NCBI GenBank assembly: GCA_965214835.1
Contig: CBDCCK010000002.1
Span: forward strand, 2,208,001 to 2,272,000
DNA from: Nitrosopumilaceae archaeon
Lineage (GTDB): Archaea > Thermoproteota > Nitrososphaeria > Nitrososphaerales > Nitrosopumilaceae
DNA length: 64,000 nt
Direction: 5' to 3'
A model generated the notes under the pieces. It was given only the letters and a program-made list of their open reading frames with translations. It did no database searches and was not told where the DNA came from. Position numbers and translations under genes: made by a program. Below, one piece after another: positions 695 through 54,425 of this stretch (its first letter is position 1; the number at the start of each line of letters is the position of its first letter).

Positions 695-1485
695 GTGCAG
701 TCAAAACAACAAAGGATGTTGACTCCCTGCGCTCGGAAATCCGGGACAGGAGCGTACGCGTAGTCGATGTGCGTCGTGAGGACGACTATGTGCGTGATCA
801 CATCCCAAGCTCCGTTAACCTCCCGCTGGCAGGCCTGCTTTCTGATGACAGCCCCGAGCGCGTCAACAGGATTATCCAGTCTGTGGGGATTGGCGACGAG
901 ACGCCGGTGGTCGTGTATGATGACACCTTTGGAGCGCTGGCATCGCGCGTTGCCTGGACCCTTGAATACTTGGGACACTCCGATGTTAGCCTGCTTGAGA
1001 CCACCTACTCCCAATGGAGATCCATGGGACTGGAAAGCGACAGCGCCGTGCCCGAGGTGCGGCCAAGTGCTCATTCTGTGAGCCTGCAGCCTGGAATCTT
1101 GGCCACCTCTGACTATCTGGAGGCCGCAAGGGGGCGCAAGGGCGTCGTCCTGATCGACAACCGTGAGCGGCTAAACTACCTAGAGCAGCACATCCCCGGC
1201 GCAATCAGCCTTCCATACAGGACCCTTGCGTCCCCAGACCGGATACTGCGCCCGCACGACGAGGTAAGGCGGTTGCTGGAGAACCGGGGCGTGTCCGGCG
1301 GCTCTGAGATCATAACCTACTGCGGTAGCGTGGGCACGCTCTCAGGTCTTGCGTATTATGCACTAAAGTCCGCAGGCCTGCCAGATGTCCGGCTGTATGT
1401 CCGCTCGTTTAGGGAATGGAAGAGCATGGAAAGGCCGACCGAGCGGCAGCCTGATGCAAACTATTGGGATCTGTCTGCAGAATAA
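691..1485 (+). CDS. Thiosulfate sulfurtransferase (tandem rhodanese domains)
   Basis: VVDVR...HIP and LIDNR...HIPGA...YCGSVG motifs; TTG start overlaps the upstream stop. Confidence 0.9.
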   Translation: MSAVKTTKDVDSLRSEIRDRSVRVVDVRREDDYVRDHIPSSVNLPLAGLLSDDSPERVNRIIQSVGIGDETPVVVYDDTFGALASRVAWTLEYLGHSDVSLLETTYSQWRSMGLESDSAVPEVRPSAHSVSLQPGILATSDYLEAARGRKGVVLIDNRERLNYLEQHIPGAISLPYRTLASPDRILRPHDEVRRLLENRGVSGGSEIITYCGSVGTLSGLAYYALKSAGLPDVRLYVRSFREWKSMERPTERQPDANYWDLSAE

Positions 1486-1550
1486 ACGGCCCTTGCCGTG
1501 CGGCGGCCGAATCCGGGAGCTGATGCAAACTATTGGGATCTGTCTGCAGA
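1451..1550. repeat. Perfect 31-bp direct repeat (1451-1481, 1520-1550) with a 38-bp interval
   Basis: ctgatgcaaactattgggatctgtctgcaga occurs twice, period 69. Confidence 0.95.
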
Positions 1551-2690
1551 GCTATGGCCTACCTGGCTTCTTAGCTGCTTTGTAACTACAACCTCGATGT
1601 TGTCAAACATCGTGAGCATCTTCTCCCTGTGGTCCTCAAGGTACTCTTCTGCCCTGTCCTCTAGCCGTATCTTCCACAGCTTGATCTCCCGGTGCTCCTC
1701 AAAGAACTGCTCAATCATCTGTTGGCCGCATTTCTTGGGATCAATGAACACGTCAAACTCCCTGACTATCCCACTGATGTCGCCCTCCTCGATTGCGTTT
1801 TTTACGTTGGTGATTGCCTGGCTGAGATCCTTGAGGTTTGCAACCGACACCGGAAGCTCCCTCTTCCTAGTGAGTCCCAGAAACCCCTTCTTTTCCTTTC
1901 CAACCCTCTTTGCAATCTCCGGCGACAGATCATATATTGGAATCCTGTGGAACCCCTCGCGCTTTTCGTTTTTTACCAGCAGCCCCTTTTCGGTCAGCTT
2001 TAGCAGCGACTCTTCGGCGTCTGCCTTGTTTAGCAACGTGGTCCAGACGATGGAGCCAATCGTATGGTATCCCTGTCTGACGCATTCGAGGACCACAACA
2101 TCCACAATTCTTCGAAACCCCTCCTCGACCCTTACGTTTATCAGGTCCTTGTCCTTTACGGCCTTTCTTGCATTTTTTACGTCGATCTCAATTGAGCGCT
2201 TTAGCGACTCGATTGCCTCGGGAACCTGGTTTAGCAGCGAGAGAAAGCATGCCTTGTTGTACCATGCCATCCCAAACTCCGGATCCGACTCGATTGCCTT
2301 CTCGCTTGAGTCAAGGGCCTTTGCATAGTTTTTTTGCTCATAGTGCACCAGGCCCTTGAGGTTCCAGGCCTCGGCGTTTGTAACATCGATATCCAGAATC
2401 TGATCATAGACCCTCAGCGCCTCGGAATGATCATCTAGATGAAACCTTGCATATCCCAGCTTTAGCAGCGTCTCGACGTTTCTTGGGTCGATGCGCAGCG
2501 CCTGCTCGAAGACCTCTACGGCGTCTTCCAGCTTTTCATCTGCCATCAGGTTCGTCCCCTTTTTGTAGAGCCGCTTGAGGTTGTACTTGGGATCCACTAG
2601 GCTGGTGGTTTTGCTTGCCTTGGACCCCTCGATCTCCTCTGGTTCGGGCTCTGGCTCGAGTTTTGCCTTCTTGAAGGGGGTCTTCATCAT
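1530..2690 (-). CDS. TPR-repeat protein
   Basis: Several TPR motifs (AEAWNLKG, GMAWYNKA); its stop codon lies inside repeat copy 2. Confidence 0.85.
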   Translation of the reverse strand: MMKTPFKKAKLEPEPEPEEIEGSKASKTTSLVDPKYNLKRLYKKGTNLMADEKLEDAVEVFEQALRIDPRNVETLLKLGYARFHLDDHSEALRVYDQILDIDVTNAEAWNLKGLVHYEQKNYAKALDSSEKAIESDPEFGMAWYNKACFLSLLNQVPEAIESLKRSIEIDVKNARKAVKDKDLINVRVEEGFRRIVDVVVLECVRQGYHTIGSIVWTTLLNKADAEESLLKLTEKGLLVKNEKREGFHRIPIYDLSPEIAKRVGKEKKGFLGLTRKRELPVSVANLKDLSQAITNVKNAIEEGDISGIVREFDVFIDPKKCGQQMIEQFFEEHREIKLWKIRLEDRAEEYLEDHREKMLTMFDNIEVVVTKQLRSQVGHSSADRSQ

Positions 2691-2797
2691 TCAGATTTGC
2701 CCTATTTTGCAGATAAATACTATTGCCGCCATATGCCTAGCACTTTGATATATCTTGATGAAAATGCAGAAATACCTCGTACTCAAAGAGACGTGTA

Positions 2798-4399
2798 GTG
2801 TCTTCCAATCCTAAAATTGAGGCAAGCGGGCCTGCCCCATTCAAGCAGGCGGGGGTATATGAGGTTCAGATACTGATTGCCGACAAAAAACCCAGCGCAG
2901 ACTCTATTCCAAAGCGCTCCTTCGATGTCCTGTGGAAGGATACGTTCCACCTCAGGGTAAAAGACGGCACGTTCTCGCAGATCCTTGGTAGCGCCGCAAA
3001 CCCCATCCCGGGCTCCGTATCTGATCTGGCATCTGTCTGGATAATAGTGATAGATCGGTTCTCGTCACTGCACTCGTCGTTTGAGGTGCAGCTGTCAAAG
3101 CCACACCCTGCAAAGCCAGAACCGCAAAAGCCAGAGCCTCCAAAAAAAGTCGAAAGGCCCCCAAAGCCTGCCACGTCCGGATCCTCGGGCCCGCCCGGCG
3201 GTAGGGGCCCTGATGGTCCGCCCGGCCCGCAGGGCGACAAGGGCCCGCCCGGCGCGCCGGGGGGAAAGGGAGATCAGGGCCCGCTGGGGGTTCCAGGTGA
3301 CAAGGGCCCACAGGGGCAGCCCGGCCTGCAGGGCGACAAGGGCCCGGCAGGCGACAAGGGACTGACCGGAGAGAGGGGCCTCAAGGGAGACCGGGGAATT
3401 ACCGGCGACAAAGGTGACAAGGGAGACAAGGGCGCAACCGGTCCTGTAGGCGACAAGGGAGACAAGGGCGCAACCGGCCCTCCTGGAGACAAGGGCCCTG
3501 TCGGCCTGCGCGGCATTCAGGGCGACAAGGGTGAAAAGGGCCCTACCGGCCCTCTTGGAGACAAGGGCCCTGTCGGCCTGCGGGGTCCTTCGGGCCCGGT
3601 CGGCGACAAGGGACCGCAGGGCGCGCCCGGTGACAAGGGACTGACGGGAGACAAGGGCCCGGTCGGAGAAAAGGGACAGACCGGTTCTCAGGGCCCGGTC
3701 GGAGAAAAGGGCATTCAGGGCCCGGTCGGAGAAAAGGGCCCCAAGGGTTCGCAGGGTCCACTTGGCGACAAGGGCCCGGTCGGCCCGGCAGGCCCCAAGG
3801 GAGACAAGGGCCTTACAGGACCGCAAGGCCCTCCAGGCGAAAAGGGTCCGGCAGGCCCCAAAGGCCCACTTGGAGAAAAGGGTACGACGGGCCCATCGGG
3901 TACGGCAGGCGACAAGGGACCGCAGGGCCCGCAGGGTCCGGCGGGAGAAAAGGGACTGACCGGCGTCCCGGGCCCGCAGGGAGAAAAGGGCGAAAAGGGC
4001 CCGCAGGGCCCACTTGGAGAAAAGGGTACGACGGGCCCGGCGGGCCCGACCGGCGACAAGGGCCCGCAGGGATCTCAGGGCCCGCAGGGAGAGCGTGGCC
4101 CGCAGGGCCCTCCAGGCGAAAAGGGCCCGCAGGGCCCGCAGGGAATTCAGGGCCCGCAGGGAGAGCGTGGCCCGCAGGGCCCGGCAGGCCCCGCAGGCGA
4201 GCCCGGACCCCGTGGAGAGCAGGGCCCTGTCGGCCCGGCAGGCCCCAAGGGCCCCCCGGGCCCTCCAGGCGACAAGGGCTCCTCTAGCGGGCTGTCTGAG
4301 TCCCAAAAGGCGCTATTCAAGGAGATGCTGGAGATCCTGACTGAAAAGAACGTCATCACCACTGAGGAGCAAATCAGGCTGATGAGCCATCTCTACTAG
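2798..4399 (+). CDS. Collagen-like triple-helix (Gly-X-Y) protein
   Basis: About 120 uninterrupted G-X-Y triplets (GDK, GPQ, GEK, GPP) between a globular N-terminus and a short helical C-terminus. Confidence 0.92.
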
Positions 4400-4790: not shown

Positions 4791-5120
4791 CTATCGCCTT
4801 CTTGCAGGCTTTCTCTTCGGAGCTGCCTTTTTCTTTGCAGGCCTTCTCTTCGGAGCTGCCTTTTTAGCTGCCGTCTTTTTCTTTGCAGGCTTTCTCTTCG
4901 GAGCTGCCTTTTTCTTTGCAGGCCTTCTCTTCGGAGCTGCCTTTTTAGCTGCCGTCTTTTTCTTTGCAGGCTTTCTCTTCGGAGCTGCCTTTTTCTTTGC
5001 AGGCCTTCTCTTCGGAGCTGCCTTTTTAGCTGCCGTCTTTTTCTTTGCAGGCTTTCTCTTCGGAGCTGCCTTTTTCTTTGCAGGCTTTCTCTTCGGAGCT
5101 GCTTTTCGTTTTGTAGCCAT
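4791..5120 (-). CDS. Lys/Ala/Pro/Arg-rich histone H1-like basic repeat protein
   Basis: KKAAPKRKPA repeats; 81-bp unit present three times. Confidence 0.75.
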   Translation of the reverse strand: MATKRKAAPKRKPAKKKAAPKRKPAKKKTAAKKAAPKRRPAKKKAAPKRKPAKKKTAAKKAAPKRRPAKKKAAPKRKPAKKKTAAKKAAPKRRPAKKKAAPKRKPARRR

Positions 5121-5416: not shown

Positions 5417-6526
5417 TCAGGCACCCTTTAGCTTGATTATCGTCAAAACATCCTCGTCTTGCAGGATGTGGTCCAGTCCAACCCTCTGCCCGCCGAACTT
5501 TACACTCTTTCCCCAGACCAGTCCGTACCTGAACTGCTTTCTCATCTTTCGGTGCAGCTTGTTGCACACGTCCTCTACCGTGTCGCCCTCCCTTGCAATC
5601 AGCGGCTCCTCAAAGTCAGTCTGGCCCCCCTTGGGCCTCATGTATATCCTGATAAAGCTCAGCCTCATGTAGATCTCCTCCCTTAACAGCTCTATGTTGA
5701 TGTCTGAGTTTGCAGAGACCTCGATCACCTTCGTTTTCAGCCTCCTTTTCAAATCCCTCCTAAATCCATCGTCTGCCAGATCAATCTTGTTGAGGATTGT
5801 AATCGCCTTTGAGTAGCTTATGTTTCCCGCAACGTGGTCTGAGAGCTGTTCTGATGTCAGATCCTCTCGGACTACCACCCTTGCACTCGTGATTCCGTAC
5901 AGGTGCAGGACATCCTTGAGGTGCTTTTCTGTAATCTTGGTCAGCCTTACCTGCTGGGCCACTGCAATCCCACCCGTTGCAGACCTTTCAACTGTGATGT
6001 TTGGGGGAAGCTGGTTCAGCCTGATTCCGATGTTGCCAAGCTCGCTTATCAGCACGTCCTCGTGGTACGGCTGGAACACGTCTAGCACAAGCAAGACAAG
6101 ATCCGCGCTTCTTGCAACCGAGAGGATTCTTTTGCCCAGGCCCTTCCCGCTTGAGGCGCCCTTGATGATTCCAGGCAGGTCCAGAACTTGGATTTTTGCG
6201 CCGCGGTACTCCATCATGCCCGGAACCACGGTCAGTGTGGTAAACTGGTAGGCGCCAACCTCCGACCTTGCACCCGTCAGCCTGTTTAGCAGCGTGGACT
6301 TTCCGACGCTTGGCAGTCCGATGAAGACAACCGTGGCATCCCCTGTTCTTCTTACGTCAAACCCATCTGACTTTTGCCCGCTCTTTTTTGAGGCATTGTC
6401 CTCCTGCTCGCGCCTTAGCTTTGCAATCTTTGCCTTTAGCAGCCCCAGGTGGTGCTCTGTTGCCTTGTTGATCTGCGTTTTTGCCATCTCGTCCTCTATG
6501 GCCTTGATTTTTTCTGGAATTCCCAA
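5417..6526 (-). CDS. DRG/Obg-family GTP-binding protein with TGS domain
   Basis: GLPSVGKS, YQFTT, DLPG and NKID motifs; C-terminal TGS domain. Confidence 0.95.
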   Translation of the reverse strand: MGIPEKIKAIEDEMAKTQINKATEHHLGLLKAKIAKLRREQEDNASKKSGQKSDGFDVRRTGDATVVFIGLPSVGKSTLLNRLTGARSEVGAYQFTTLTVVPGMMEYRGAKIQVLDLPGIIKGASSGKGLGKRILSVARSADLVLLVLDVFQPYHEDVLISELGNIGIRLNQLPPNITVERSATGGIAVAQQVRLTKITEKHLKDVLHLYGITSARVVVREDLTSEQLSDHVAGNISYSKAITILNKIDLADDGFRRDLKRRLKTKVIEVSANSDINIELLREEIYMRLSFIRIYMRPKGGQTDFEEPLIAREGDTVEDVCNKLHRKMRKQFRYGLVWGKSVKFGGQRVGLDHILQDEDVLTIIKLKGA

Positions 6527-8777: not shown

Positions 8778-8984
8778 AGTCGGAGTTATGCAACAATCTA
8801 GGTGATTTTATATCTTTATTAATTACACCTGATTTAATCATGACATCAGAATGAATGACTTGCATGCCATTATGGGGCAGGACACCCCTGCCAATGTCGC
8901 CCTGATCGTTTGGGTGGGGGGTGACCTGTCGTAGCTTTGACACGGGGGAGCCCGTCTAGTCGGACTCTTGTAGATGCAGCCTCC

Positions 8985-11900
8985 ATGTACTTGGCGTTTG
9001 TTGCGGTTGCCGTCTTGGGTCTTGCTGCTGCCGGGGCCCTGCCGGAGGGTGCGTACGCGCAGCAGAGCGAGATCGAGATAGTTGCCGTCAGCAGCCTGGG
9101 AAATAACAACACCCTGCTGCTTGATGCCGCCCATGACGTGGATGTCTTTACAATAGGAAGCCGGACCTACGCTGCGGTGACCTCCGAAGGTGACGACGGC
9201 CTCCAGATTGTAAACGTCTCCAACCCTGCCAGTCTGCAGGCCGCCGGTAGTCTGGCAAACGGGGGATCCGCGCGGCTTTCCAACGCCCAGGGCGTGGACA
9301 CCTTTACGATAGGCAGCAGCACTTACGCAGCGGTGGCCGCCTACAGCCAGGGCCTCCAGATTGTAAACGTCACCGATCCTGACAATCCCGCCGCCGTCGG
9401 GAATCTGTCTGATGGCGGCTCCAGTAAGCTTAACGGCGCCCAGGGCGTGGATGTATTCACGATAGGCGGCGACACCTACGCCGCAGTGGCAGCCCACGTG
9501 GACAATGCCCTCCAGATTGTAAACGTCACCGATCCTGACAATCCCGCCGCCGTCGGGAATCTGGCCGATGGCGACGGCTCCCTGGAGCTTAACGGCGCCC
9601 AGGGCGTGAATGTATTCACGATAGGCAGCAACAAATACGCTGCAGTGGCCGCAGTTGATGACAACGGCCTCCAGATAGTCAACGTTACGGATCCGACCAA
9701 CCCGGCAGCGGCCGGGAAACTGAGTGACACGGGCTCCCTGGAGCTTCACGGCGCCCGCGGCGTGACCACCTTTGTGATAGGCGGCAACACATACGCCGCA
9801 GTCGCCTCCTGGACTGACGACGGCTTTCAGATTGTAAACGTCACCGATCCTGACAATCCCGCCCCAGCCGGGCGTCTGGAGGATAGCGGCTCACTGAGGC
9901 TTGACGGCGCCCAGGGCGTGGATGTATTCACGATAGGCAGCAGCACTTATGTGGTGGTATCCTCGGGATCCGACAACGGACTACAGATAGTCAACGTCAC
10001 CGATCCTGACAATCCCGCCCCAGCCGGGAATTTGGGGGATAACGGCTCCAGGAAGCTTGCCAACGCCCGCAACCTAGACGTCTTTGTGATAGGTGAAAGC
10101 ACCTACGCTGCAGTGACTGCCATCCGAGATGATGGCCTCCAGATAGTGAGGTTGGAGACAGAGACGCCCAACAGCCCGCCTGTGGCACCGAACGAGACGG
10201 CAACTACTGCAGAGGACACGTCCGTTACCATAACGCCTACCGTATCAGATCCCGACACATCGGACACCCCGGTAATATCGGCAGTCGATAACCCGCCAAA
10301 CGGGACTGCCACTCATGATGATAATACGATAACCTACACGCCCGACTCTGACTATGATGGTACGGACACCTTCGGATATACGGTAACTGACGGCACCGAC
10401 ACGGCGCAGGGCACGGTAACGGTAACCGTAACGCGCGACAACAACGACCCCGTCTTGGGTACCATAGGAGACCAGACGGCCACTCTGGATGTTCAACTAA
10501 CCATAACGCCTACCGTAACTGACGCCGATCCGACTGACACGCACACGTACTCGATATCGCGCGGCACGCTGCCGGCAGCTGCCGCATTCACTCCATCTGA
10601 CGGCAGTCTCGTCTGGACGCCCGTACAGGCCGATGCCGGGCAGACCCACACGGTCACCATAACCGTAAATGACGGCCGCGGAGGCACCGCTTCTGAGGCA
10701 TTTGACATAGCAGTGGCAGATGCACCCAACGCCCCGCCGGTGGCGCCAGACGAGACGGCCACGACTGCAGAGGACACGCCCGTTACCATAACTCCGAATA
10801 TATCGGATCCCGATACATCGGACACTCCTGTAATATCGGCAGTAGATAACCCGCCAAACGGGACTGCCACTCATGATGATGATACGATAACTTATACGCC
10901 TGATCAGGACTATGACGGTACGGACACGTTCGGATATACGGTATCTGATGGAACAGACACGGCGCAGGGAACCGTAACGGTAACCGTAACGCGCGACAAC
11001 AACGCCCCCGTAATGGGTACAATAGGCGACCAGAACGCGACGCCGGGCATACAGCTGGTCATAACGCCCACGGTAACTGACGATGATCCGACTGACACGC
11101 ACACGTATTCCATATCGCGCGGCACGCTGCCGGCAGCTGCCGTATTTTCCACCTCTGGTGGCCTCCTCATCTGGACGCCCGTGCAGGCCGATGCAGGACA
11201 GACACACACGGTCACCATAACCGTAGATGACAGCCGCGGCGGCACCAACTCGCAAACCTTTGACATAGTCGTGGCCGACATGGACACCTCTGAAATCACG
11301 CTTACCCCCGTCGGGAATCTGAATGATACCGACTCCAGAGAACTTGACGACGCCCAAGGCGTGGCCGTCTTTGCGATCGGGCAGAACACATACGCTGCAG
11401 TCGCCGCATCCCGCGACGACGGCCTCCAGATTGTTAACATCACAGATCCATCCAATCCGACAGCTGCCGACAGCCTGGGGGATAACAACACCCTGCTGCT
11501 TGGTGGCGCCCAGGGCGTGGACATATTTGCTATAGGGGCTAACACCTACGCTGCAGTGGCCTCCTCCGCCGATGACGGCCTCCAGATTATCGATGTCACA
11601 AACCCTTCCAGTCTTGTGGCAGTCGGGAATCTGGAAGATACCATAGATGAGGTGGGGGACACTCCGATAGAAGGATTTTTGCTTGACGGCGCCAGCAGCG
11701 TGGACATCTTTACAATAAACGGCAGCACCTACGCTGCAGTGGCCTCCTCCGCCGATGACGGCCTCCAGATTATCGATGTCACAAACCCTGCCAGCCCTGA
11801 CGCTGCCGGCAGCCTGGGGGATAACAGCACCCTGCGGCTTGACGGCGCCAACGCAGTGACCATCTTTGGGATAAATTCGAGTATCTACGCCGCAGTGACC

Positions 11901-14660
11901 TCCTTTGCAGACGACGGCCTCCAGATTGTCGATGTCACAAACCCTGCCAGCCCCGCCGCCGCCGGCAGCCTGGGGGATAACAACACCCTGCGGCTTGACG
12001 GCCCTCAAGGCGTGACCACCTTTGTGATAGGCAGCAGCACCTACGTGGCGATATCCTCACAGACAGACAATGGCCTCCAGATCATCGATGTCACAAACCC
12101 TGCCAGCCCCGCCGCCGCCGGCAGCCTTGCAGACACGAACTCACTATTGCTTGGCAACGTCAACGGTATAGATGCCTTTATGATGGGCAACACCACCTAC
12201 GTGGCAGCTGCCTCCTTTATCGAGAAAGGCCTCCAGATTATCGACGTCACCGATCCTGCCGGCCCGGTAGGTGCCGGGAATCTTGCAGACACGACCTCCC
12301 TGCTGCTTGATGGCCCGCGCGACGTGGACATATTCACGATAGGCAGCAGCACCTACGCCGCAGTGGCATCCGAATACGATGACGGTCTGCAGGTGGTGAG
12401 GCTAGATGAGGCCGCATCCAGCATCCCGCCTGTCATATCACTTGTGGGAGACAACCCGTTGATCCATGAGCTGGGCACCCCGTACGCAGATCCGGGTGCC
12501 ACGACCGACGACGGTTCTGAAGTCACAACGGATACATCACAGGTCGACGTCAACGTGCTCGGGGATTATCTGGTCACATATACTGCCACCGACGATGACG
12601 GCAACACGGCAACGGCGATCAGGATAGTGTATGTGCGCGATACCGCCCCCCCGACATTTGAGTCTGCAACCCTTAATGTGAACACGGGTGCCATGACCAT
12701 AACCTTCAGCGAGACGATAGACGTATCGACAACCAACCTGTCCCTGCTGTACGTCAGCGACATAAACCAGGAAGATACCGTCCTGCTGGAAGGCGCCGGC
12801 TTTGACGATGCGACACTCGATACAGAGACCCTCTCACTCACGCTTGTAGAGTCCCAGCTGACGCAGATAATCCCGATGGACACGCCGCAGCTCGACATTT
12901 CCTCTGGTGCCGTATCTGATATACTCGGCAACCAGATAGGGGACTCGCCGGATAACCCGATCACGGTAACCGCAGACGACCCAGGGCCCTCCTTTGAATC
13001 TGCAACCCTTGACGAGAACACGGGTGCCATGACCATAACCTTCAGCGAGACAGTCGACATATCGGCTACCGGCCTCACACTGATGTATGTCAGCGATATA
13101 AACCAGGCAAACACCGTATCGCTGGGTGGCGCCGTATTCGACTTTGGATCTGCCGACGTCGAGACCCTCTCACTCACGCTTGTAGAGTCCCAGCTGACGC
13201 AGATAATCCCGATGGACACGCCGCAGCTCGACATTTCCTCTGGTGCCGTATCTGATATACTCGGCAACCAGATAGGGGACTCGCCGGATAACCCGATCAC
13301 GGTAACCGCAGACGACCCAGGGCCCTCCTTTGAATCTGCAACCCTTGACGAGAACACGGGTGCCATGACCATAACCTTCAGCGAGACAGTCGACATATCG
13401 GCTACCGGCCTCACACTGATGTATGTCAGCGATATAAACCAGGCAAACACCGTATCGCTGGGTGGCGCCGTATTCGACTTTGGATCTGCCGACGTCGAGA
13501 CCCTCTCGCTCACGCTCCTTCGGGCCCAGCTGGGGGAGATAGCCCCGATGAGGATCCCACAACTTGACATTTCTGCCGGTGCCGTATCGGATCTGCGCGG
13601 CAACCTGATAGACGAGTCACCGGACAACCCGATCACGATCCCGGGACGTGTCCCGACCGGGGAGGACGACACCGTACCGCCGCCGTCTGCCGGCCGGAGC
13701 AGCGGAGTCGGCGGTGGTGGAGGTGGCGGCGGCCGCACCGGCATCATATCTTCCTCGGCCAGTGAGAATCTTGTATACATATCCTCCATATCGTGGGACT
13801 GCACAGCCAGACTCGTGACGACCGAAGCCGCGCCCGCATCTGATAATCTATCTGTCTCGGTGCGTACCACCGCCAACAGCCTTACACGGGCTACGGATGC
13901 AGGACAGACTGCAGATGGACTGGCCGTGTTTACTGCGCCGATGAGCGAAAGCGAGACGTACATCGGTGTCAGCGCAGTCCTGCACTCTGGAGGGGACATC
14001 AGCTCCGATTACGAGTCGGTAAACATCGATGCCTGTACCGGCAAGCACACGTATGACATCCCGGTACCGGTATCTTATGATACTGCCGGGCAGGCAGTCG
14101 GGCAGCCGCCCGATGTGACGGTCGGGCCGCCGATGCCTGTAGAGCCTTCTGCCCCGGTACAGCCGGAGCCCGAGCCGTCGGTGATGCCAGAGCCTTCTGC
14201 CCCGGTACAGCCGGAGCCCGAGCCGCCGATGCCTGTAGAACCTCAGGATCAGACACAGCCCGAGCCGCAGGCAGCCTCGGAGCCAGGCGGCTCGTGCCTG
14301 ATAGCGACTGCCGCATACGGAACCGAGCTGGCGCCGCAGGTGCAGGCACTCAGGGAGATACGAGACGGCACGCTTCTCTCGACTGACTCGGGCACCTCCT
14401 TTGTAGCCGGATTCAACTCTGTATACTATTCGTTCTCGCCTGCAGTAGCCGACTTGGAGCGACAGAACCCGGCATTTCGTGAGGCCGTACGGGTGCTTGT
14501 GACCCCGATGATCTCGACGCTGTCGATAATGTCGCTTGCCGAGGAGGGCTCAGATGCCTCGGTGCTGGCGCTGGGCGCCTCGGTCATTGCCCTTAATATC
14601 GGCATGTATGTAGCAGCCCCTGCGGCCGTCATCGTAGCTGCCCGGCGACTGCGAGGATGA
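8985..14660 (+). CDS. Giant surface protein: LVIVD beta-propeller repeats, Ig/cadherin-like repeats and a CFI-box-CTERM anchor
   Basis: Signal peptide MYLAFVAV...AYA; many GLQIVNVTDP repeats; TAEDT/TYTP/DTFGY Ig repeats; C-terminal GGSCLIATAAYGTELAPQVQ plus a TM helix. Confidence 0.9.
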   Translation: MYLAFVAVAVLGLAAAGALPEGAYAQQSEIEIVAVSSLGNNNTLLLDAAHDVDVFTIGSRTYAAVTSEGDDGLQIVNVSNPASLQAAGSLANGGSARLSNAQGVDTFTIGSSTYAAVAAYSQGLQIVNVTDPDNPAAVGNLSDGGSSKLNGAQGVDVFTIGGDTYAAVAAHVDNALQIVNVTDPDNPAAVGNLADGDGSLELNGAQGVNVFTIGSNKYAAVAAVDDNGLQIVNVTDPTNPAAAGKLSDTGSLELHGARGVTTFVIGGNTYAAVASWTDDGFQIVNVTDPDNPAPAGRLEDSGSLRLDGAQGVDVFTIGSSTYVVVSSGSDNGLQIVNVTDPDNPAPAGNLGDNGSRKLANARNLDVFVIGESTYAAVTAIRDDGLQIVRLETETPNSPPVAPNETATTAEDTSVTITPTVSDPDTSDTPVISAVDNPPNGTATHDDNTITYTPDSDYDGTDTFGYTVTDGTDTAQGTVTVTVTRDNNDPVLGTIGDQTATLDVQLTITPTVTDADPTDTHTYSISRGTLPAAAAFTPSDGSLVWTPVQADAGQTHTVTITVNDGRGGTASEAFDIAVADAPNAPPVAPDETATTAEDTPVTITPNISDPDTSDTPVISAVDNPPNGTATHDDDTITYTPDQDYDGTDTFGYTVSDGTDTAQGTVTVTVTRDNNAPVMGTIGDQNATPGIQLVITPTVTDDDPTDTHTYSISRGTLPAAAVFSTSGGLLIWTPVQADAGQTHTVTITVDDSRGGTNSQTFDIVVADMDTSEITLTPVGNLNDTDSRELDDAQGVAVFAIGQNTYAAVAASRDDGLQIVNITDPSNPTAADSLGDNNTLLLGGAQGVDIFAIGANTYAAVASSADDGLQIIDVTNPSSLVAVGNLEDTIDEVGDTPIEGFLLDGASSVDIFTINGSTYAAVASSADDGLQIIDVTNPASPDAAGSLGDNSTLRLDGANAVTIFGINSSIYAAVTSFADDGLQIVDVTNPASPAAAGSLGDNNTLRLDGPQGVTTFVIGSSTYVAISSQTDNGLQIIDVTNPASPAAAGSLADTNSLLLGNVNGIDAFMMGNTTYVAAASFIEKGLQIIDVTDPAGPVGAGNLADTTSLLLDGPRDVDIFTIGSSTYAAVASEYDDGLQVVRLDEAASSIPPVISLVGDNPLIHELGTPYADPGATTDDGSEVTTDTSQVDVNVLGDYLVTYTATDDDGNTATAIRIVYVRDTAPPTFESATLNVNTGAMTITFSETIDVSTTNLSLLYVSDINQEDTVLLEGAGFDDATLDTETLSLTLVESQLTQIIPMDTPQLDISSGAVSDILGNQIGDSPDNPITVTADDPGPSFESATLDENTGAMTITFSETVDISATGLTLMYVSDINQANTVSLGGAVFDFGSADVETLSLTLVESQLTQIIPMDTPQLDISSGAVSDILGNQIGDSPDNPITVTADDPGPSFESATLDENTGAMTITFSETVDISATGLTLMYVSDINQANTVSLGGAVFDFGSADVETLSLTLLRAQLGEIAPMRIPQLDISAGAVSDLRGNLIDESPDNPITIPGRVPTGEDDTVPPPSAGRSSGVGGGGGGGGRTGIISSSASENLVYISSISWDCTARLVTTEAAPASDNLSVSVRTTANSLTRATDAGQTADGLAVFTAPMSESETYIGVSAVLHSGGDISSDYESVNIDACTGKHTYDIPVPVSYDTAGQAVGQPPDVTVGPPMPVEPSAPVQPEPEPSVMPEPSAPVQPEPEPPMPVEPQDQTQPEPQAASEPGGSCLIATAAYGTELAPQVQALREIRDGTLLSTDSGTSFVAGFNSVYYSFSPAVADLERQNPAFREAVRVLVTPMISTLSIMSLAEEGSDASVLALGASVIALNIGMYVAAPAAVIVAARRLRG
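12825..13496 (+). repeat. Intragenic 336-bp tandem duplication (two essentially identical units)
   Basis: gagaccctctc recurs at 12825, 13161 and 13497; 112-aa unit. Confidence 0.9.
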
Positions 14661-19480: not shown

Positions 19481-19589
19481 CCTGATTGTCTTGCCGGCCT
19501 CCCAGGACTTGTCTGGAAATGATCAAGGATCTAGGACTATCAGAGGGCGATCTGCCTGATTGTCTTGCCGGCCTCCCAGAACTTGTCTG
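19481..19589. repeat. 35-bp direct repeat (19481-19515, 19555-19589; 1 mismatch) with a 39-bp interval
   Basis: cctgattgtcttgccggcctcccag(g/a)acttgtctg occurs twice, period 74. Confidence 0.95.
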
Positions 19590-37648: not shown

Positions 37649-38205
37649 TTATGATTTATTGTAACAGATCGGGCTCTGGAAGTTCAGGCGTGAATTTTGC
37701 AACCTCGGAGGGGGGGCCTCCCGGGCAAATTCGTGCCTGGAATCGGGGCCTTTTTGTCCGTCTTTTTTCGGCTTGAGATCCCCTCGCTTCTCCCTCTTAC
37801 CGTATCTGTCAGTAACGACGCCGGTACTGTCGACTGCAAGCTTTAGTGCAGACGTGTCAAACCATGCAGGGCATTTGCGTGCAGTCTCAGATATCATCTC
37901 CTCAAGCCACTTGTTTGGAATCTTTGGCATGAGCCTGCACAGGGTGACGTGGTCTGGCACCGGCCCGTCGCTCTAGCGGGGTAGCCTTGGACAGAAAAAC
38001 AGGGAAATTTTACATTTTGACTATATTCCACCGGCCCGTCGCTCTAGCGGGATAGCCTTGGACAGTGCACAAGACACTGCGTGTCACGGCATGTCAGGTT
38101 CAGACACATCGTCAAAATACATAAGCACGCTAGCCCGTCGCGGCTGTGGACTGCCGGCCGTCCCGGCCCGGAACGGATCTTGACGGGATGCGGGTTCTCC
38201 ATGAT
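37649..38205 (-). pseudogene. IS5-like transposase remnant
   Basis: PDHVTLCR and AVDSTG motifs; stops and frameshifts. Confidence 0.6.
37958..38065. repeat. 37-bp direct repeat (37958-37994, 38029-38065; 1 mismatch) with a 34-bp AT-rich interval
   Basis: caccggcccgtcgctctagcggg(g/a)tagccttggacag occurs twice, period 71. Confidence 0.95.
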
Positions 38206-42791: not shown

Positions 42792-44296
42792 ATGTACTTT
42801 TGCAGACCCGACACGGCACCTCCGCTACTTTCCGCGATCGTTTACAAACGAGTCGGCCGCATCGACAATGCACGCGACAAACAGCATCATGGTAAACCCC
42901 TTCCCTCCTGCAAATCCGTCCCACTTGGATTCCACGTCTATGAACACGGCAGTCCTCCACAGGTTGTACAGTATGACAGACATATAGAACAGCAGCAGCC
43001 TGACTGCCGGGGAGTTGCTGCACGTCTTGCCCATTATCCCCTTGATCACCCTGAACCCGGTCTCGATTCCCCACCGACTGCGGTACTCCTCCGGTATCTG
43101 CTCAATGACTGCCTCTGCACTTTTAGCAGACATGTTGGTGGCAAAGACCCTGGTACCTGTCGGCTATGGTCTCTTTTGCCTTGTCCTTCTTTGCTGCTGC
43201 CGTGCCGTCCTTTTCTACCTCGTCCTTTTCCACAATGATCAGCCTGAATGTGGCGCTCTTGCCGTCCTTGTTGGTCATTGTATATTTTGATACCGCACCG
43301 CGTTCTCCGCGGTCATGCTCCTCTATTGCCGCCACTATCCTCCTGTTCTTGACGGCAGGCATGATGTAGCTGCCCGTGCTTGTTTCTGCAGCCCTCATGC
43401 AGTCCACGTTAAAGAACCCGCGGTCATACAGGAACGTCTTGATCCTCATCCCTGATCTGGACGCCTTGCGGATCATTTTAGGCACGAAATCGGCCAGTTT
43501 TGCCTCTTTTGGAAGCTGCAGCGAGGAAAGCACGAGGTCAGACCCGTCATCTGATCCTATTCCGTGCATGGTAATATGCGAGAGAAACGTCGACGTGCCG
43601 TTCTTGGGCTTTGACTTTCTGGTGATATCCTCCAGGCCCTTGCCATAGTATTCCACGTCGGTAACGTCCACTGCCACGATGTCCGTGTTGTGCAGCATGC
43701 CTGACCTGCGGGCGCACCTTACCGTATGCTGCAGCATGGAGCTGCACCACTTTTGCGCATCATCCAGGCTGACGCCCCGGATCGCCTTTAGGATCCAGTC
43801 CGGACTAGGCGTACGGCAACTATACGCGCCGCCCTTGGAGGCAGCCCCGTCGTCATGCTGCTGCCTGCTGCATTTTGAGGCCCGCCTGCGAAGGTGCGTC
43901 ACGGCAGATTCTGCAAACATCTTCCTCTCAGACATGAAATATAGAACGCGCAGTGCGTCGATGTGGTCATACACTGCGTTGCGACTCTTTGAGACGGCCA
44001 GCCCGAGCTTGGAAAACCGCCGTCGCAATGTTTTAAACTGTCTCGATGTTATGTCAAACTGGTGTGCAAACACGTCGTTTTGTGTTGGTATCATGATGAT
44101 GGTTGGCACACCACCTGATCTATTGTATGTGGTCACGTCCCCTTGCTAGCTAGGCACGAAGATCACAATCATTCATGCTAATTCATGCCTAACTGATGAT
44201 GGTAGGTGACCTCGTACGATCTATAGTATGATGGTCAAAAAATCTCGGCAAATTGCGTAATTATCGTGCCTGCAAAAGTACATCGAGGAACTACTG
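42779..44296 (-). mobile_element. ISH3-family (IS4-like) insertion sequence with a frameshifted transposase (44094-42825)
   Basis: 27-bp TIRs cagta(c/g)ttcct(a/c)gatgtacttttgcag; AVDVT, DRGF and YRSRWGIETGFR motifs; flanks do not match. Confidence 0.88.
44125..44217 (+). mobile_element. MITE family A copy nested in the ISH3 element
   Basis: 93 bp; flanks gatctatt / gatctata (7 of 8 match). Confidence 0.9.
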
Positions 44297-44897
44297 AAGT
44301 AGGTGAAGGGGTAAACTCATACAACTTATGCTCTTCACTATAGATAGCAAGGGGACGTGACCACGTACTCTTAATCCTCTCCTCATACTCCTTGATCCTC
44401 TTCTTGCCCGCGCCTTCTCCTTCCCGTACTGCTCGATCCTCTCCCACAGTCGTCGTATCAGCTCGGTCTCGGACTTTGCCATTACTCTTGTACGGGAATG
44501 GATCCCGGATCTAAATCAACCGGCTGAAAATACTTGCAGGTTTGATCAAATATTTTCAACGTTGTGAGGTACAGTCACGCGTGCACCGGCCCTGACTCGC
44601 CCCATTTGTAGTCCGTGCGCCGGGAGCATCACCGCTAATTTCGTTTATGCATAAGGTCTAAAGAAACTAGGCAGTTTTTACGTCATTTTTGGCAAATACG
44701 CATAAAGTCTACTGCAGTTTTTGTCGGCCAGACGTGTTCATAACTGCACGATACGAGGTTCTTGGTGGCCCAATGCATGTCATGTAGCGCTGCCGGCCTT
44801 GCATGCACGGCCAAAGTGATGTCGGAATTTTTTGATCCCGGCGATCCGGTCGATTACGCATAAGGCCTATATTTCACCTAGCGGATCAAGAGATCAC

Positions 44898-45790
44898 ATG
44901 ATGCACAAGACTGGCTCGGTGATGTGGCCCCACCTCTTCTATGTCGGCCCCGGAAAAACGGGATCGACTACGATGTACCACATCCTGAGTGGGATCCGTG
45001 GAATGTATGTTCCTCCCGTTAAGGGGTTGAATTACTTTTTGCGAGACATTACCAAGAAGGAATACTTTTCGTTTTACAAAGGCGTCAAAGACGAGAAGAT
45101 AATTGCCCACTCCTCGCAATGCTACTTTAGCAGTGCCGCGTGCCGGCGGATCCGCGCAGTCAGGCCTGACGCAAAGATCTTGATCACCCTGCGGGATCCC
45201 GTCGAGCAGTTGTTTTCGAGGTTCCTGCTTGAAACCATGACGACAAAGCTGATAAAAAACATCCACACCTTTACACAGTCAGTTGATCGCTTCACCAGCG
45301 ACGACTATGGCGCCCTGTGCCGCAACGACGTCGACAATGACCGCGATCTGCTGGATATCAAAAAGTCAAACAAGTACTATTACTCCGAGCCGCTGTCCGT
45401 GTGGATTTCTACCTTTGGGAGGCACAACGTCAAGGTGATACTCCTCGAGGATCTGGTCGAAAACCCGAGGGATACGGTGGCCGGTCTGCTGGACTTTGTG
45501 GGGGGGGGTGTACTGCCGACCTTGACTCGTTTGCACTCGAGGTCCACAACCCATTCCACATACGCTCCCATGCGCTGTCCAAAATCATAGATTGCATACC
45601 GCTGTCATACCAGAAACGCATCCCATCTGGCATCAGGGGGTTTGCCACCAAAAAAATCTTGAGAAGGGCGGTGGAAAAACCGCAGATGAACCCGTCTGAC
45701 AGGCGCAGGCTGCAGGACTTTCTCCGGGATGATGTCTCTGAGACAGAAAGGATACTGGGACGCAGGCTTCCTTGGAAGAACTTCCGGTAG
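44898..45790 (+). pseudogene. Sulfotransferase, frameshifted at a G9 tract (45500-45508)
   Basis: PHLFYVGPGKTGST (PAPS loop), LRDPVEQLFS; C-terminus KPQM...ILGRRLPW lies in another frame. Confidence 0.8.
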
Positions 45791-49291: not shown

Positions 49292-49404
49292 CCGGCAAAA
49301 TGGAACGCGGCAGTCCGCCGTTGCGGTCAACTGAAAAGCGACTGGATGATGACTGCAGGGAACGTGCCGGCAAAATGGAACGCTGCAGTCCGCTACTGCG
49401 GTCA
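49292..49404. repeat. 38-bp direct repeat (49292-49329, 49367-49404; 4 mismatches) with a 37-bp interval
   Basis: ccggcaaaatggaacgc(g/t)gcagtccgc...tgcggtca occurs twice, period 75. Confidence 0.9.
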
Positions 49405-50470
49405 GCCCATCAGGTATTGGAACATCTTTACCGGAAGGATCTCACGCTTGGCAAACAGCTTCCGCACTGAACGCTCCATGTCATCAAGAGTATTGAATAT
49501 CCGGGCAGACAGCCTTCGCTTTATCTCCCTGTACCGTATCTCGACGGGGTTGAGCTCCGGCGTGTACGGCAGTGTGTACTCTAGCAGTATTTCACCGTCG
49601 TACTTTTCCAGCGTCTTTTTTACGCCGCCGGACTTGTGGTATGACGCATTGTACAGGAATATCAACACCTTGCCGTATCTTTCGTGCACCCTTTCTAAAA
49701 AGTCGCAAAAGCTGCCGGTGTTGGTCTTCTCATAGAACATAAAGTGGAATATGCCTGCTGCCAGCACGCCGAATATGTACCTGCGCTGCCGTGACAGGGA
49801 CGAGGGCGTCGTGAGGCGCCTGCCGCGCTTTGCCCACCCACGTTTGGGGCTGTTTGAGGTCTTTTGGATGGAGGACTCGTCCTCTGCCAGCACCGTATAC
49901 CCTTGTGCCGTCTTTTCCCTGATCAGCTTCTGTGCTGCCTCCTTGAACTCGTTTTGCTTGCGCTTTGAGGCGGCCTTTGGGTTCTTTGACCTTGATTTCC
50001 TCCAAGCGAACCCAAGCTCGTGTGCCAGCAGCCGCGTGCCGCTACTGCTGTACTGTATACCGAACTTTTTCTTGATGTGCCGCCTTATCAGGCGCAAGTC
50101 CCACAGGCTGCTCTCAAAGCCGCAGTCCCCGGGATCCGACTTGAGATCCGCGTCAAGCTGGCTCAGCTGCGACTCGCTCAGCTTGTGCTTGCGTCCCCTG
50201 CCTGCGCGCTCGTGTCTTGCGCGTATTCCCTCGTCCTGTGCGCGGTTGAGCCACCTGGATATGGTGGAAGCTGCCCGGTCGAGGTTCTTTGCTATCTGTT
50301 CCGTACCAAGGCCGTCCTTGCGCTGCATGTATGCAAGCAGCCCGTCGCGTTCCCTCTTGTCAGCTGCCCTCTTGTACGCCTCGTGCAGGTAGGAGCGACT
50401 CGTGTTTGGCAGGAACTCGTCTCCCGATGCCACGGATTCCTTTCTCTTTCTGTTCATGTACATTCGTATG
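49402..50470 (-). mobile_element. IS630-family transposase
   Basis: HTH and winged HTH, AEDESS, LYNASYH (DN changed to YN), LPYTPELNPVE. Confidence 0.88.
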
Positions 50471-50552
50471 CCTTGCCTGGTCTTAACCTTTGGATTAAAA
50501 ATAGTTGCCAAAGTTGTCCATTTTTTTATGTGTTGACTATATATGTAAAACC

Positions 50553-50600
50553 GGGGTTGTCGCCTAATTCCATTTATCTGGCCCAACCTGCACATTTTGT
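50553..50600. repeat. Half copy of MITE family B
   Basis: ggggttgtcgcctaattccatttatctggcccaacctgcac. Confidence 0.75.
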
Positions 50601-52826: not shown

Positions 52827-52903
52827 GTATGGGGTCACCTGCCCCTGCCAATCAGGCATGGATTGGCATGTATGATTGTGATCTTCGTGCCTAGCCGGCA
52901 TAC
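52827..52903 (-). mobile_element. Internally deleted MITE family A copy
   Basis: gtatggggtcacc...tgattgtgatcttcgtgcctagc...catac. Confidence 0.7.
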
Positions 52904-52927
52904 TCCAAGTCAGAATGCCACGAGCCG

Positions 52928-53332
52928 TTAGTGTAGCGGTTCCCGAGCAGGAATTGGCCCTGGCACCTTTTGCATAGCTTGCCTAGCCAGCTCGCCGCGA
53001 GCAACAAGGGCAGGGTCCTGCCGGTACGGCTCTAGCGCCTTTTGCATAGCTTGCCTAGCCAGCTCGCCGTCTAGTGCCTTGAATTTTAGGATTAGCTCGC
53101 TTTCACTGTTTAGAGAATACAGCTGTGCCTTGCCGAACTTTCTTGTGGCCTTTAGAAACCCAAACTGCATGACTTCATCCCAGATCTTGTAGAGCGTAGT
53201 CTTTGAGATGCCCGTATACTCTATTATCTCCTTTTTAGAATAGTCACTGCCTGCGTTATCCAGAAAAAAGTCTATGATTCTGAGTTTTGGCGTGTCACCC
53301 ATGTACTGTAGGAGCAGCGATCTGTCTTGCAT
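52928..53332 (-). CDS. Winged-helix DNA-binding protein
   Basis: KLRIIDFFL...DYSKKEI...GISKTTLY...TRKFGKAQLYSLN. Confidence 0.85.
   Translation of the reverse strand: MQDRSLLLQYMGDTPKLRIIDFFLDNAGSDYSKKEIIEYTGISKTTLYKIWDEVMQFGFLKATRKFGKAQLYSLNSESELILKFKALDGELARQAMQKALEPYRQDPALVARGELARQAMQKVPGPIPAREPLH
52966..53069. repeat. Perfect 32-bp direct repeat (52966-52997, 53038-53069) with a 40-bp interval
   Basis: ccttttgcatagcttgcctagccagctcgccg occurs twice, period 72, in frame (GELARQAMQK twice). Confidence 0.95.
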
Positions 53333-53394
53333 GGAATTACTGGTACCTCAAGCGTATTTAAATATGAGCTACCAAAGGTACTATAAGCGTACAT

Positions 53395-53663
53395 ATGTTA
53401 TCAAACGAAGGGATCAAGTCTAGAATCATTCGCAAGCTCTACAGACACGGAAAGGGGGTGCAAGCCACATCTCGTTTGAAAATCTCAAAAAAGGATTCAC
53501 ACAAAGGGATGCGGGGAAACAGGGCTCAAAGAGGGTAGGCAAGATGGGCAAGGAGCTGATTAAAGAGGGTCTGATTCTCTCAAAACCAACCGGATATGGA
53601 CTAGAGGTGAGCCTGAACCCCAGGATGATTGATCAGATAAGGATGTATTTGGAGATTGAGTAA
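53395..53663 (+). pseudogene. Small winged-helix-like protein with a single frameshift near 53452 (absent from the ORF track)
   Basis: MLSNEGIKSRIIRKLYRHGK then, in a shifted frame, GASHISFENLKKGF...KELIKEGLILSKPTGYGLEVSLNPRM...IE*. Confidence 0.65.
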
Positions 53664-54125
53664 GGTCAGCAATTCCGATTGCGGCCTGAGAATACAGCAA
53701 AATGGTAGGTTTCTGTGATCACCCATACTGACGGGCAAAAAGTTCCTGAAGTATTTCATGATCAGATATTCCTACCGACAGTAGACAACCTTCGAGAATA
53801 GAAGACCTTATGTGTAATCGTCCGGATCGAAATATTATGTTTAAAAGCCGATCATGCACGCAATGCTAGCGCACGGCACCGTACGGCTCCGCATAATGTC
53901 CAGCATATTTGATCAAACCCCAAATATTTTCATACGGTTGATTTAGATCCGGGATTCATTATCGTAGTGGTATGTCAGAGTCATGGGCCAAGTTGATGCG
54001 ACGGCTGAAAGTGGAGATCAGGTAGTACAAGAAAAGATCAGAACGTGGCCGTGGGGTGATGTAGCAAGTGGAGGCATCCACACCAAGCAATGGATCGTGG
54101 TTTTGGCATATTTTGTGCCGTAATA

Positions 54126-54213
54126 GGATAGTCCCCGCCTAGGCAGCAGTCAGGCACGAATCTGCCTGCAGTTGTGATTTTCATGCCTGACCGGCAAGGG
54201 ATGTGACTACAAC
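54126..54213 (-). mobile_element. Degenerate MITE family A copy
   Basis: caggcacgaatc...gttgtgattttcatgcctg...aagggatgtgactac. Confidence 0.6.
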
Positions 54214-54319
54214 TCTAGGCAGGGGCCATCCTATTACGTGGCAAGGCTACTTCGGCTCTTGGGTCCAACGTGGATAATATGGCATCCGCTACAGACTAGA
54301 TTTGATATAACGTCTCTTA

Positions 54320-54425
54320 CCGGCGTTTGGCATGAAAATCATGTTCGTCAGCATGCAGTGGCAGTCATAGAGGTCGGCGAACCGGCCATCACCCGGCGCC
54401 TTGCATGAAAATCATGCTCGCCAGC
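54320..54425. repeat. 33-bp imperfect direct repeat (54320-54352, 54393-54425; 5 mismatches) with a 40-bp interval
   Basis: ccggcg....gcatgaaaatcatg.tcg.cagc occurs twice, period 73. Confidence 0.75.

Follow-up and report, generated by a model that had tools for sequence, protein, structure and literature searches.

What leaves two copies of a local sequence on either side of a short insert, at nearly the same spacing and with a different repeat each time? The question is raised by a 64-kb stretch of the genome of a Nitrosopumilaceae archaeon (the window; positions 2208001-2272000 of the contig carrying it, GenBank CBDCCK010000002.1, here called C2, in the genome that we label G000). A first-pass annotation made from the sequence had noted seven loci in the window with an X-Y-X structure, in which X is local sequence and Y an insert, and had proposed that they are either natural scars of ectopic spacer integration by Cas1-Cas2, the enzymes that add spacers to CRISPR arrays, or products of a Cas-independent process acting at a fixed distance. 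Our analysis indicates that X-Y-X loci of this kind are very probably off-array spacer integration scars made by the genome's own type I-G Cas4-Cas1 and Cas2, a kind of event known until now chiefly from laboratory work.

Repeat dimensions and the resident CRISPR-Cas system

In a repeat search of the window, all but one of the seven loci came up as direct repeats in two copies at a period of 69-75 nt; as the first-pass annotation had described, X is different at every locus and Y is not repeated locally. The seventh, at window position 26354, proved to be a phenylalanine transfer RNA (tRNA-Phe) gene with a decayed partial copy. The whole genome (3.22 Mb, two contigs, 52.6% G+C) was scanned with a custom script that collects exact 12-mers recurring within 15-400 nt and extends them without gaps, giving 1993 pairs on C2. 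Pairs were retained when X was at least 20 nt long and shorter than the period and the period was 40-120; exclusion of five regions (two CRISPR arrays, two tandem or palindrome clusters and a collagen-like gene of the window) left 203 pairs, and a uniqueness filter, which allowed an X start no more than two occurrences genome-wide, removed 104 of them and left 99. Half of these unique isolated repeats, 50 of 99, have periods of 71-76 (four at 71, 19 at 72, nine at 73, five at 74, 11 at 75 and two at 76), and the other 49 are spread over the remaining 75 periods of the range 40-120; when X is limited to 30-46 nt, 38 lie at periods 71-76 and 18 elsewhere. The repeat pattern is confirmed as real and far beyond chance, with the sharp genome-wide peak near 72 that the first-pass annotation had anticipated.

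The length of X points to the size of the duplicated unit. Among the 55 unique loci at periods 68-77, a perfect X measures 36 nt in 11 cases, 37 nt in nine, 35 nt in three, 38 nt in two, and 39 and 34 nt in one each; eight further perfect X measure 27 nt (three) and 22, 28, 31, 32 and 54 nt (one each). This is the distribution that a 36-nt duplication predicts when chance matches extend it at either end, and subtracting 36 from the period leaves inserts of 35-40 nt for the 50 loci; X therefore has the length of a CRISPR repeat, and Y that of a spacer. The inserts are all different, non-coding and devoid of terminal repeats, and each locus holds two copies of its own local sequence, X being common only between paralogs. 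Loci with a short X (less than 33 nt) were left out of the scar count; about six such perfect repeats fall at periods 71-76, matching the background of about 0.65 loci per period.

These lengths are those of the CRISPR-Cas system that the genome carries. The first-pass annotation was right that the window contains no cas gene: the cas locus begins about 208 kb beyond its end, at C2:2480012. The search for cas1, cas2 and cas4 and the comparison of array lengths that it had suggested yielded a Cas4-Cas1 fusion, the single Cas1 homolog of the genome, together with Cas2 and an array of 36-nt repeats and 35-40-nt spacers (Table 1). The best relative of solved structure for Cas4-Cas1 is the Cas4/Cas1 fusion 7mi4 (E 5e-164). 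In NCBIfam, Cas4g/Cas1g scores 754.8 bits (cut-off 560) and Cas3g 630.3 (cut-off 400), Cas2, Cas7g and Csb2 also exceed their cut-offs, and Cas8g2 reaches 100.8 bits, under its cut-off of 125. By these family matches the system is type I-G, and its adaptation module (cas1, cas2 and the cas4 domain) appears to be intact. The repeat of the main array is exactly 36 nt long, identical in 148 of 148 copies and flanked by random columns; the 147 periods (mainly 72 with 45, 73 with 54, 74 with 18 and 75 with 16, in addition to seven at 71 and four at 76) give spacers of 35-40 nt in 144 of 147. The genome itself is identified as archaeal by its ribosomal proteins S4e and L24P and its proteasome alpha subunit.

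None of the 147 array spacers matches the chromosome. Spacer 41 matches positions 6366-6401 of the 13-kb contig C1 (36/37, with TT upstream), inside a gene for a glycosyltransferase of 1270 amino acids (aa). We considered C1 as a plasmid or virus targeted by this spacer; its gene content, which comprises IS66 and IS110 transposases, the glycosyltransferase, a methyltransferase and laminin-G and is surface-related, speaks otherwise, and C1 looks like an unplaced or strain-variable chromosomal island. A second array at C2:135821-136367 is made up of 8 repeats, which fall into two variants, both akin to the main one; no cas genes were found beside it and its leader-side sequence differs from that of the main array, and it may be an orphan or an older array.

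Direction of the event, origin of the inserts and choice of site

Scars in multi-copy elements, which the uniqueness filter removes, were examined separately, and eight of them reveal the site before the event. The scars at C2:717492, 1625426, 1652870, 2201735, 2360350, 2445029, 2950434 and 1736693 have 1, 2, 1, 6, 1, 5, 5 and 1 empty paralogs, respectively, in which the flanks align and which hold one X and no Y; X is 36-39 nt in all eight loci. Where five or six empty copies stand beside a single filled one, insertion is more parsimonious than loss, and the paralogs support an event in which Y and a second X were gained. The same is seen within the window at 52956, where sequencing runs X3 and X6 contain a related contig (about 98% identity, about ten-fold higher depth) that joins 52959 to 53032 and omits exactly 72 nt; this contig is an empty allele of the locus. 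The runs used may include the genome's own source sample and are not fully independent of it.

All Y were compared with the genome by BLAST. Fourteen have a full-length or near-full-length match elsewhere on C2 (a further match, 33/38 for the Y of the locus at C2:204691, is outside the 14 counted), and TTN adjoins the protospacer on one side in 8 of the 14, compared to 12% of random 36-mers (p ~7e-5). In work on a Cas4-Cas1 fusion of the same subtype, a TTN protospacer-adjacent motif (PAM) was selected in 50-80% of spacers, and the spacers were mainly of 36 bp (PMC6547450). Four of the 14 protospacers, including that of locus 37958, lie within C2:900193-906409, a 6.3-kb interval that begins inside orc1/cdc6 and is flanked by two PolD subunit genes; the cumulative GC skew has its maximum near 0.88 Mb, and the interval is most likely the neighbourhood of the replication origin. 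When the 2 nt assignable to either X or Y are included, the Y of 37958 matches C2:900193-900228, within the 5' end of orc1/cdc6, at 36/36 positions, so that the first-pass description of this insert as foreign does not hold. One other Y matches a multi-copy insertion sequence, and one has its source 12 kb from the cas genes. In Pyrococcus furiosus most new spacers are likewise self-derived, with hotspots at OriC, transposons and CRISPR arrays (PMC5737086). The presence of self-derived Y in scars versus none in the array would be expected if self spacers are lethal only in an array. The first-pass proposal to search the inserts for protospacers and a shared PAM was productive on the chromosome. 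The Y of 19481, for which the genome has no full-length match, gave nothing in one exact-match scan of IMG/VR viral contigs.

The flanks of the insertion sites show a partial bias. For 42 non-redundant scars, chosen to have a period of 70-77, an X of 33-42, no more than 3 mismatches and a single representative of each distinct Y, the nucleotides directly outside X on one side are CC in 18 of 42 (13.5% expected), CCT in 10 of 42 (3.6%) and CCYG in 8 of 42 (2.3%), enrichments with p = 2-5e-6; the preference is partial, CC being absent in 24 of 42 scars. The leader beside the first repeat, read in the same orientation, is CCCGTA in this genome and CCTCCC in the relative G066, introduced below. 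At 49292 the target within an insertion sequence ends CGTTGCGGTCA then GCCC, which resembles the end of the CRISPR repeat, CGTTGCGGAAAT then CCCG.

Taken together, these features would fit an integration in which Cas1-Cas2 is loaded with a processed prespacer of 35-40 nt and makes two staggered strand-transfer attacks on a chromosomal site, their spacing set by the ruler that normally spans the 36-nt CRISPR repeat; gap filling would then duplicate the 36 nt between the attacks and yield X(36)-Y(spacer)-X(36). The choice of site would be loose, favoring a CC(Y) flank that resembles the end of the leader beside the first repeat, and the inserted fragments would include many pieces of the cell's own chromosome, often with a TTN PAM and several from the replication-origin neighbourhood. 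Self spacers would be autoimmune in a real array and harmless off-array, because the X that flanks them is no CRISPR repeat and no CRISPR RNA (crRNA) would be made. We infer both that the integrase acted at these sites and that the scars give rise to no crRNA.

Relatives and rival explanations

Cas1 is present in 19 of the 61 family genomes sampled, and 400 kb was scanned in each of three relatives. G066, of another genus (70% G+C, 3.17 Mb), has a type I-G array with a 36-nt repeat and a period mode of 71; array repeat pairs span C1:2941287 to C1:2981872 of that genome, or an estimated ~570 repeats at about 71 nt per unit. Its scanned sequence holds 13 isolated repeats (X 30-45, period 40-120), 11 of them at periods 69-74 (four at 70, the mode, two each at 71 and 72, and one each at 69, 73 and 74) and two at 63; the peak is 1-2 nt below that of our genome, as is the array period. 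At G066 C1:2989807-2990020, some 8 kb past the cas genes, a non-CRISPR X is present in three copies that enclose two different inserts, and the site is a two-spacer neo-array. G043, of the same genus as G066, has no Cas1 match, and none of its 18 repeat pairs in 400 kb has a period of 67-80. G004, of the same genus as our genome (38% G+C), has a nearly identical I-G repeat and an intact Cas4-Cas1. Among the genomes scanned, scars occur only where the system is present, and their period follows that of the local array. As a separate observation, an off-register mini-array lies beside the giant array of G066 at C1:2939563-2939850; its three unit copies hold two inserts, and the unit consists of the last 11 nt of a degenerate repeat and 25 nt of adjacent DNA.

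Several observations weigh against reading the loci as integration scars. In 400 kb of G004 there is no isolated repeat (X 30-46, period 70-77) outside the array, so that having a I-G system is not enough to predict scars. Six of the mapped protospacers (14 in all) lack an adjacent TTN, the X/Y boundaries on which the PAM calls depend are ambiguous by 1-4 nt, and about 40 Y had no source identified in the genome BLAST. The PAM side and the CC-flank side have no consistent orientation relative to each other, as judged by eye at the few readable loci. An empty paralog could in principle arise by recombination between the two X, deleting Y and one X. Orthologous empty sites, which the first-pass annotation had also wished to see, were not obtained: at 37958, 52956 and 54320 no alignment spanned the locus in G002, which is the closest relative but fragmentary (76% complete) and has 80-91% identity. 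In the insertion sequence hit at 49292, an alternative insert Y' is common to 8 copies and to G002, and could be old or an intrinsic feature of the element. Locus 1451, with a 31-nt duplication and a period of 69, misfits a 36-nt ruler. The periods that preserve a reading frame (72 and 75) are not significantly enriched among scars over the array (23 of 42 versus 61 of 144, p 0.16).

Some of these points would suit a Cas-independent templated insertion or repair, for example template switching at stalled forks, in which about 36 nt would be copied from another place and about 36 nt of target duplicated, with a distance set by a feature such as the chromatin wrap. Such a process would explain why Y is often a copy of DNA from the same chromosome, why several of the sources adjoin the replication origin, and why G004, which has a I-G system, has no scars in 400 kb. 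It offers no account of a duplication equal to the 36-nt repeat with inserts of spacer lengths, of the TTN enrichment and the leader-like CC(Y) flank, or of the period of 70-71 in G066, where the array period is 71, and the Cas1-less G043 has no such repeats. It predicts no PAM, no leader-like flank and no shift of period between genomes; the fixed-distance or chromatin-wrap process put forward by the first-pass annotation is not needed, and we regard it as very unlikely.

The genome is rich in insertion sequences, which directs attention to another integrase or mobile element, either a casposase or a transposase of a kind not previously described that makes a 36-nt target-site duplication, and casposons are known in relatives of this archaeal family (PMC8464041). 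The sole Cas1-family match is, however, the CRISPR Cas4-Cas1, and the inserts, all different and 35-40 nt long, encode nothing and have no terminal repeats. Casposon target duplications, moreover, are far shorter than 36 nt. On these grounds (short non-coding inserts and a single Cas1 homolog) we rejected casposon or transposon insertions as a description of the loci, and give an integrase other than Cas4-Cas1 a slimmer chance still. The loci were likewise rejected as CRISPR arrays, each having two copies of local sequence and no repeat in common.

Errors of assembly or sequencing, or chance repeats, have in their favor that the assembly is in two contigs and that the 36-nt repeats of the scars break short-read contigs. 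Among the Logan contigs listed, none bridges the filled form of 37958, 49292 or 52956; these contigs break at the scars. At 37958, contigs from runs X3 and X6 begin at 38001 and carry Y-X2 with 0 differences, and contigs of runs X1, X3 and X6, which come from two studies, span 54320 with no rearrangement. Artefacts would not be expected to include decayed copies, such as those of 54320 (85%) and 49292 (34/38), nor the same scar in each member of a paralog pair, as at window 49292 and C2:1736693 and again at C2:1921439 and C2:1966990. Chance is countered by the 50 loci in six periods versus 49 in the other 75, and we consider this explanation negligible. The first-pass proposal of natural ectopic Cas1-Cas2 scars is, by comparison, supported by the repeat and spacer lengths, the empty paralogs, the PAM-enriched protospacers and the intact module.

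Individual loci, affected genes and relation to known systems

The loci of the window differ in how well they fit off-array spacer integration (Table 1; in the prose below, positions without a contig name are those of the window). Four, at 19481, 37958, 49292 and 52956, fit the class well. The locus at 54320, which adjoins a multi-copy short repeat, is probably an old, decayed scar, held with lower confidence than the class as a whole. Confidence in 1451 as a scar is low, and it is not assigned to the class because short-X loci occur at the background rate; its Y has no match elsewhere in the genome, nor was a paralog of the locus found there, and an integration whose second cut slipped is one possible origin, an unrelated event another. 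The locus at 26354 was rejected: its similarity is limited to two blocks of 18 nt (83% and 89%), spaced 75 and 74 apart, and the downstream copy is part of tRNA-Phe. The other copy, 74-75 nt upstream, is decayed and partial; it corresponds to the D and anticodon arms, covers the 5' half of the tRNA and may have been left by integration or recombination at this gene.

Table 1. Positions and structure of the window loci (window coordinates) and of the cas locus (C2 coordinates)
Feature	Position	Structure	Assignment
1451	1451..1550	X(31)-Y(38)-X(31); copies 100% identical; period 69	atypical candidate
19481	19481..19589	X1 19481-19515, Y 19516-19554 (39 nt), X2 19555-19589; period 74; 35-nt X, 97%, one mismatch	fits scar class well
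26354	26354..26494 (+)	tRNA-Phe 26423-26494 and decayed partial copy 26354-26391	not a scar
37958	37958..38065	X1 37958-37994, Y 37995-38028, X2 38029-38065; period 71; 37-nt X, 97%, one mismatch; non-coding	fits scar class well
49292	49292..49404	X1 49292-49329, Y 49330-49366, X2 49367-49404; period 75; 34/38 identity	fits scar class well
52956	52956..53069	X1 52956-52997, Y 52998-53027, X2 53028-53069; period 72; 39/42 (93%)	fits scar class well
54320	54320..54425	X1 54320-54352, Y 54353-54392, X2 54393-54425; period 73; 28/33 (85%); non-coding	probable old, decayed scar
Cas4-Cas1 fusion	C2:2480012-2481712	566 aa	
Cas2	beside Cas4-Cas1 fusion	96 aa	
Main CRISPR array	C2:2482178-2492954	148 repeats	
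Further cas-locus neighbours		insertion sequence; Cas3 with C-terminal HD domain; Cas8g2-like protein; Csb1/Cas7g; Csb2	

The locus at 49292 lies at the end of a DDE_3 (IS630/Tc1-like) insertion sequence whose transposase occupies 49402-50595 on the minus strand. The repeat search gave a 55-nt alignment at 78% here, and the 38-nt core with 34 matches comes from the custom scan; the same X-Y-X recurs with perfect copies in the paralog at C2:1736693. Of 13 copies of the element, 3 have a single X, 2 (that of the window and C2:1736807) contain the Y of 49292 and 8 contain Y', which is also present in G002, where the locus carries a different insert from that of 49292. Either this pseudo-repeat has been hit at least two times or Y' is old.

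Many scars lie within long open frames, and their effects on genes are of two kinds. In-frame scars keep the open reading frame (ORF) open and add 24-25 residues, as in proteins that go from 460 to 485, from 853 to 878 and from 812 to 836 aa; at 52956 the 72-nt insertion is in frame within a 134-aa helix-turn-helix ORF (52928-53332, minus strand). Others split genes, namely those at C2:558201 and C2:2927710 and, in the window, 1451 and 19481. The insert at 1451 terminates a rhodanese-domain ORF (682-1485), and removal of Y and one X joins ORFs of 267 and 276 aa into an open frame of 525 aa. The scar at 19481 is situated between a proteasome beta gene (18881-19477, plus strand) and the 3' end of a PUA-domain gene (19540-20025, minus strand), and alters the C-terminus of the latter.

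Scars are unevenly distributed: 12 of 49 loci fall in C2:2.2-2.4 Mb, which includes the window (corrected p ~6e-4). This stretch, the densest of the genome, is close to the minimum of the GC skew, with the cas locus 0.2 Mb away, and may reflect either integration bias or the tolerance of a region rich in insertion sequences. No chain of the form X-Y-X-Y'-X was found in this genome. Three candidates for more complex structures were set aside: C2:1927769, with three X and the same Y twice, is a tandem expansion rather than a second integration; C2:2476210-2476900 is not a neo-array, its tandem repeats being coding sequence for the acidic tail of a ribosomal L24 homolog; and C2:34440-35700, tried as CRISPR-like, is a palindrome cluster with irregular spacing. 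The last contains several dozen matches to a perfect palindrome of about 24 nt at spacings of 49-105 nt, is followed at C2:35734-36100 by 84-nt tandem repeats, and may be a protein-binding cluster. At C2:1301320 and C2:1301520, two independent scars with different X and Y stand 200 nt apart as a local double hit; the X of the latter occurs nine times genome-wide.

The large number of scars in this genome may have to do with the position of its adaptation genes: cas4/1 and cas2 are directly downstream, on the same strand, of a ribosomal-protein gene cluster (L3 to L6), and the excess may come from their read-through expression off that operon, which would mimic the over-expression behind the off-target events in E. 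coli. In G004, cas4/1 and cas2 are not downstream of the ribosomal-protein cluster. The genome is about twice the usual size for the family and has many insertion sequences, which may point to weak purifying selection; family genomes are mostly 1.1-2 Mb, and the mobile-element load here is heavy by comparison. An insertion sequence at 42640-45300 and elsewhere is present in at least 9 copies at 98-99% identity, and the genome holds about 30 copies, one of them on C1, of a short repeat (about 120 nt) that is found near 54120-54240.

Other features of the two regions may be recorded briefly. The cas region (C2:2470800-2500700) contains the L24 homolog, whose acidic tail of about 290 aa is built of 66/75-nt repeats, and, beside the cas genes, a TIR-domain protein and a UvrD-type helicase of 1045 aa that also has a PD-(D/E)XK nuclease domain. 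In the window, a 533-aa ORF (2798-4399) built for the most part of GGN-rich repeats of 9-nt period encodes a collagen-like Gly-X-Y protein, unusual for an archaeon, to which a region of G004 (C1:1888500-1889300) is similar; a 1907-aa ORF (8937-14660) has repeat units of 156 nt, 273/285 nt and 336 nt (88% identity). Tandem repeats at 4802-5106 (81 nt x 3.8, 99%) and at 37105-37244 (45 nt x 3.1, 100%, within the minus-strand ORF 36759-37400) look like very recent expansions.

Off-target spacer integration and neo-CRISPR formation have reportedly been described in E. coli type I-E, with over-produced Cas1-Cas2 and supplied oligonucleotides, by Nivala, Shipman and Church in Nat Microbiol in 2018. 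In cells over-producing Cas1-Cas2, rarer off-target integrations occur elsewhere in the genome (PMC7054753), motifs resembling IHF sites raise off-target integrations (PMC9456107), and some Cas1-Cas2 complexes can, in vitro, use repeat-like sequences that are not part of an array as integration sites (PMC8047081, PMC6698737); the natural evidence, from two other species, is called 'circumstantial' (bioRxiv 10.1101/148544). The loci described here resemble the E. coli events in having a spacer-sized insert and a duplicated non-CRISPR target, at off-array chromosomal sites whose choice may be influenced by leader-like features, and the two-spacer site of G066 resembles the E. coli neo-CRISPR in that repeated use of one site can seed a new array. 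Unlike those of the E. coli work, the scars are natural, fixed, archaeal and associated with type I-G, number about 40-50 per genome, are often intragenic and have traceable protospacers.

The closest enzymatic parallel is the I-G (formerly I-U) Cas4-Cas1/Cas2 of Geobacter sulfurreducens, of the same protein family, with a predominant 36-bp spacer and selection of TTN (PMC6547450; solved structures include 7mi4); its canonical adaptation is at the leader-proximal repeat, whereas the targets here are unrelated chromosomal sequences. Naive acquisition in P. furiosus likewise takes self spacers, with OriC, transposon and CRISPR-array hotspots, but there they are transient in the arrays of cultured populations (PMC5737086), whereas here they are preserved as fixed off-array scars. 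Acquisition termed 'ectopic' in Streptococcus thermophilus (PMC7999890; reviewed in PMC8047081) is also away from the leader-proximal repeat; in that literature the word denotes internal repeats of a true array, and here the target is non-CRISPR DNA. Our literature search, which left most subscription papers and supplements out of its reach, returned no report of a genome-wide set of natural off-array scars. The mechanism that we propose is the same as that of off-target integration in E. coli. The novelty lies in the setting, an archaeon with a type I-G system in which dozens of natural events have become fixed, together with protospacers that can be traced, empty sites and the recurrence of the pattern in another genome.

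The scars provide a direct measure of one fitness cost of CRISPR adaptation, the insertional mutagenesis of host genes, and they record, unfiltered by autoimmunity and with the orc1/cdc6 hotspot included, how an uncultured archaeon samples spacers naively. They also give natural examples of how new arrays could begin, and a simple signature by which any genome can be screened, namely isolated direct repeats with a period equal to the sum of repeat and spacer. Whether off-array integration is, in some I-G archaea, a steady mutational process rather than a rare slip, one that puts dozens of spacer-sized, mostly self-derived pieces into genes and occasionally seeds arrays, with read-through of cas4/1-cas2 perhaps driving the excess, is a proposition that we hold to be evenly balanced. 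If it is true, the scars are a natural record of what adaptation samples, origin-proximal DNA and insertion sequences included, written at the expense of some genes that are broken and of others that gain 24-25 residues in frame.

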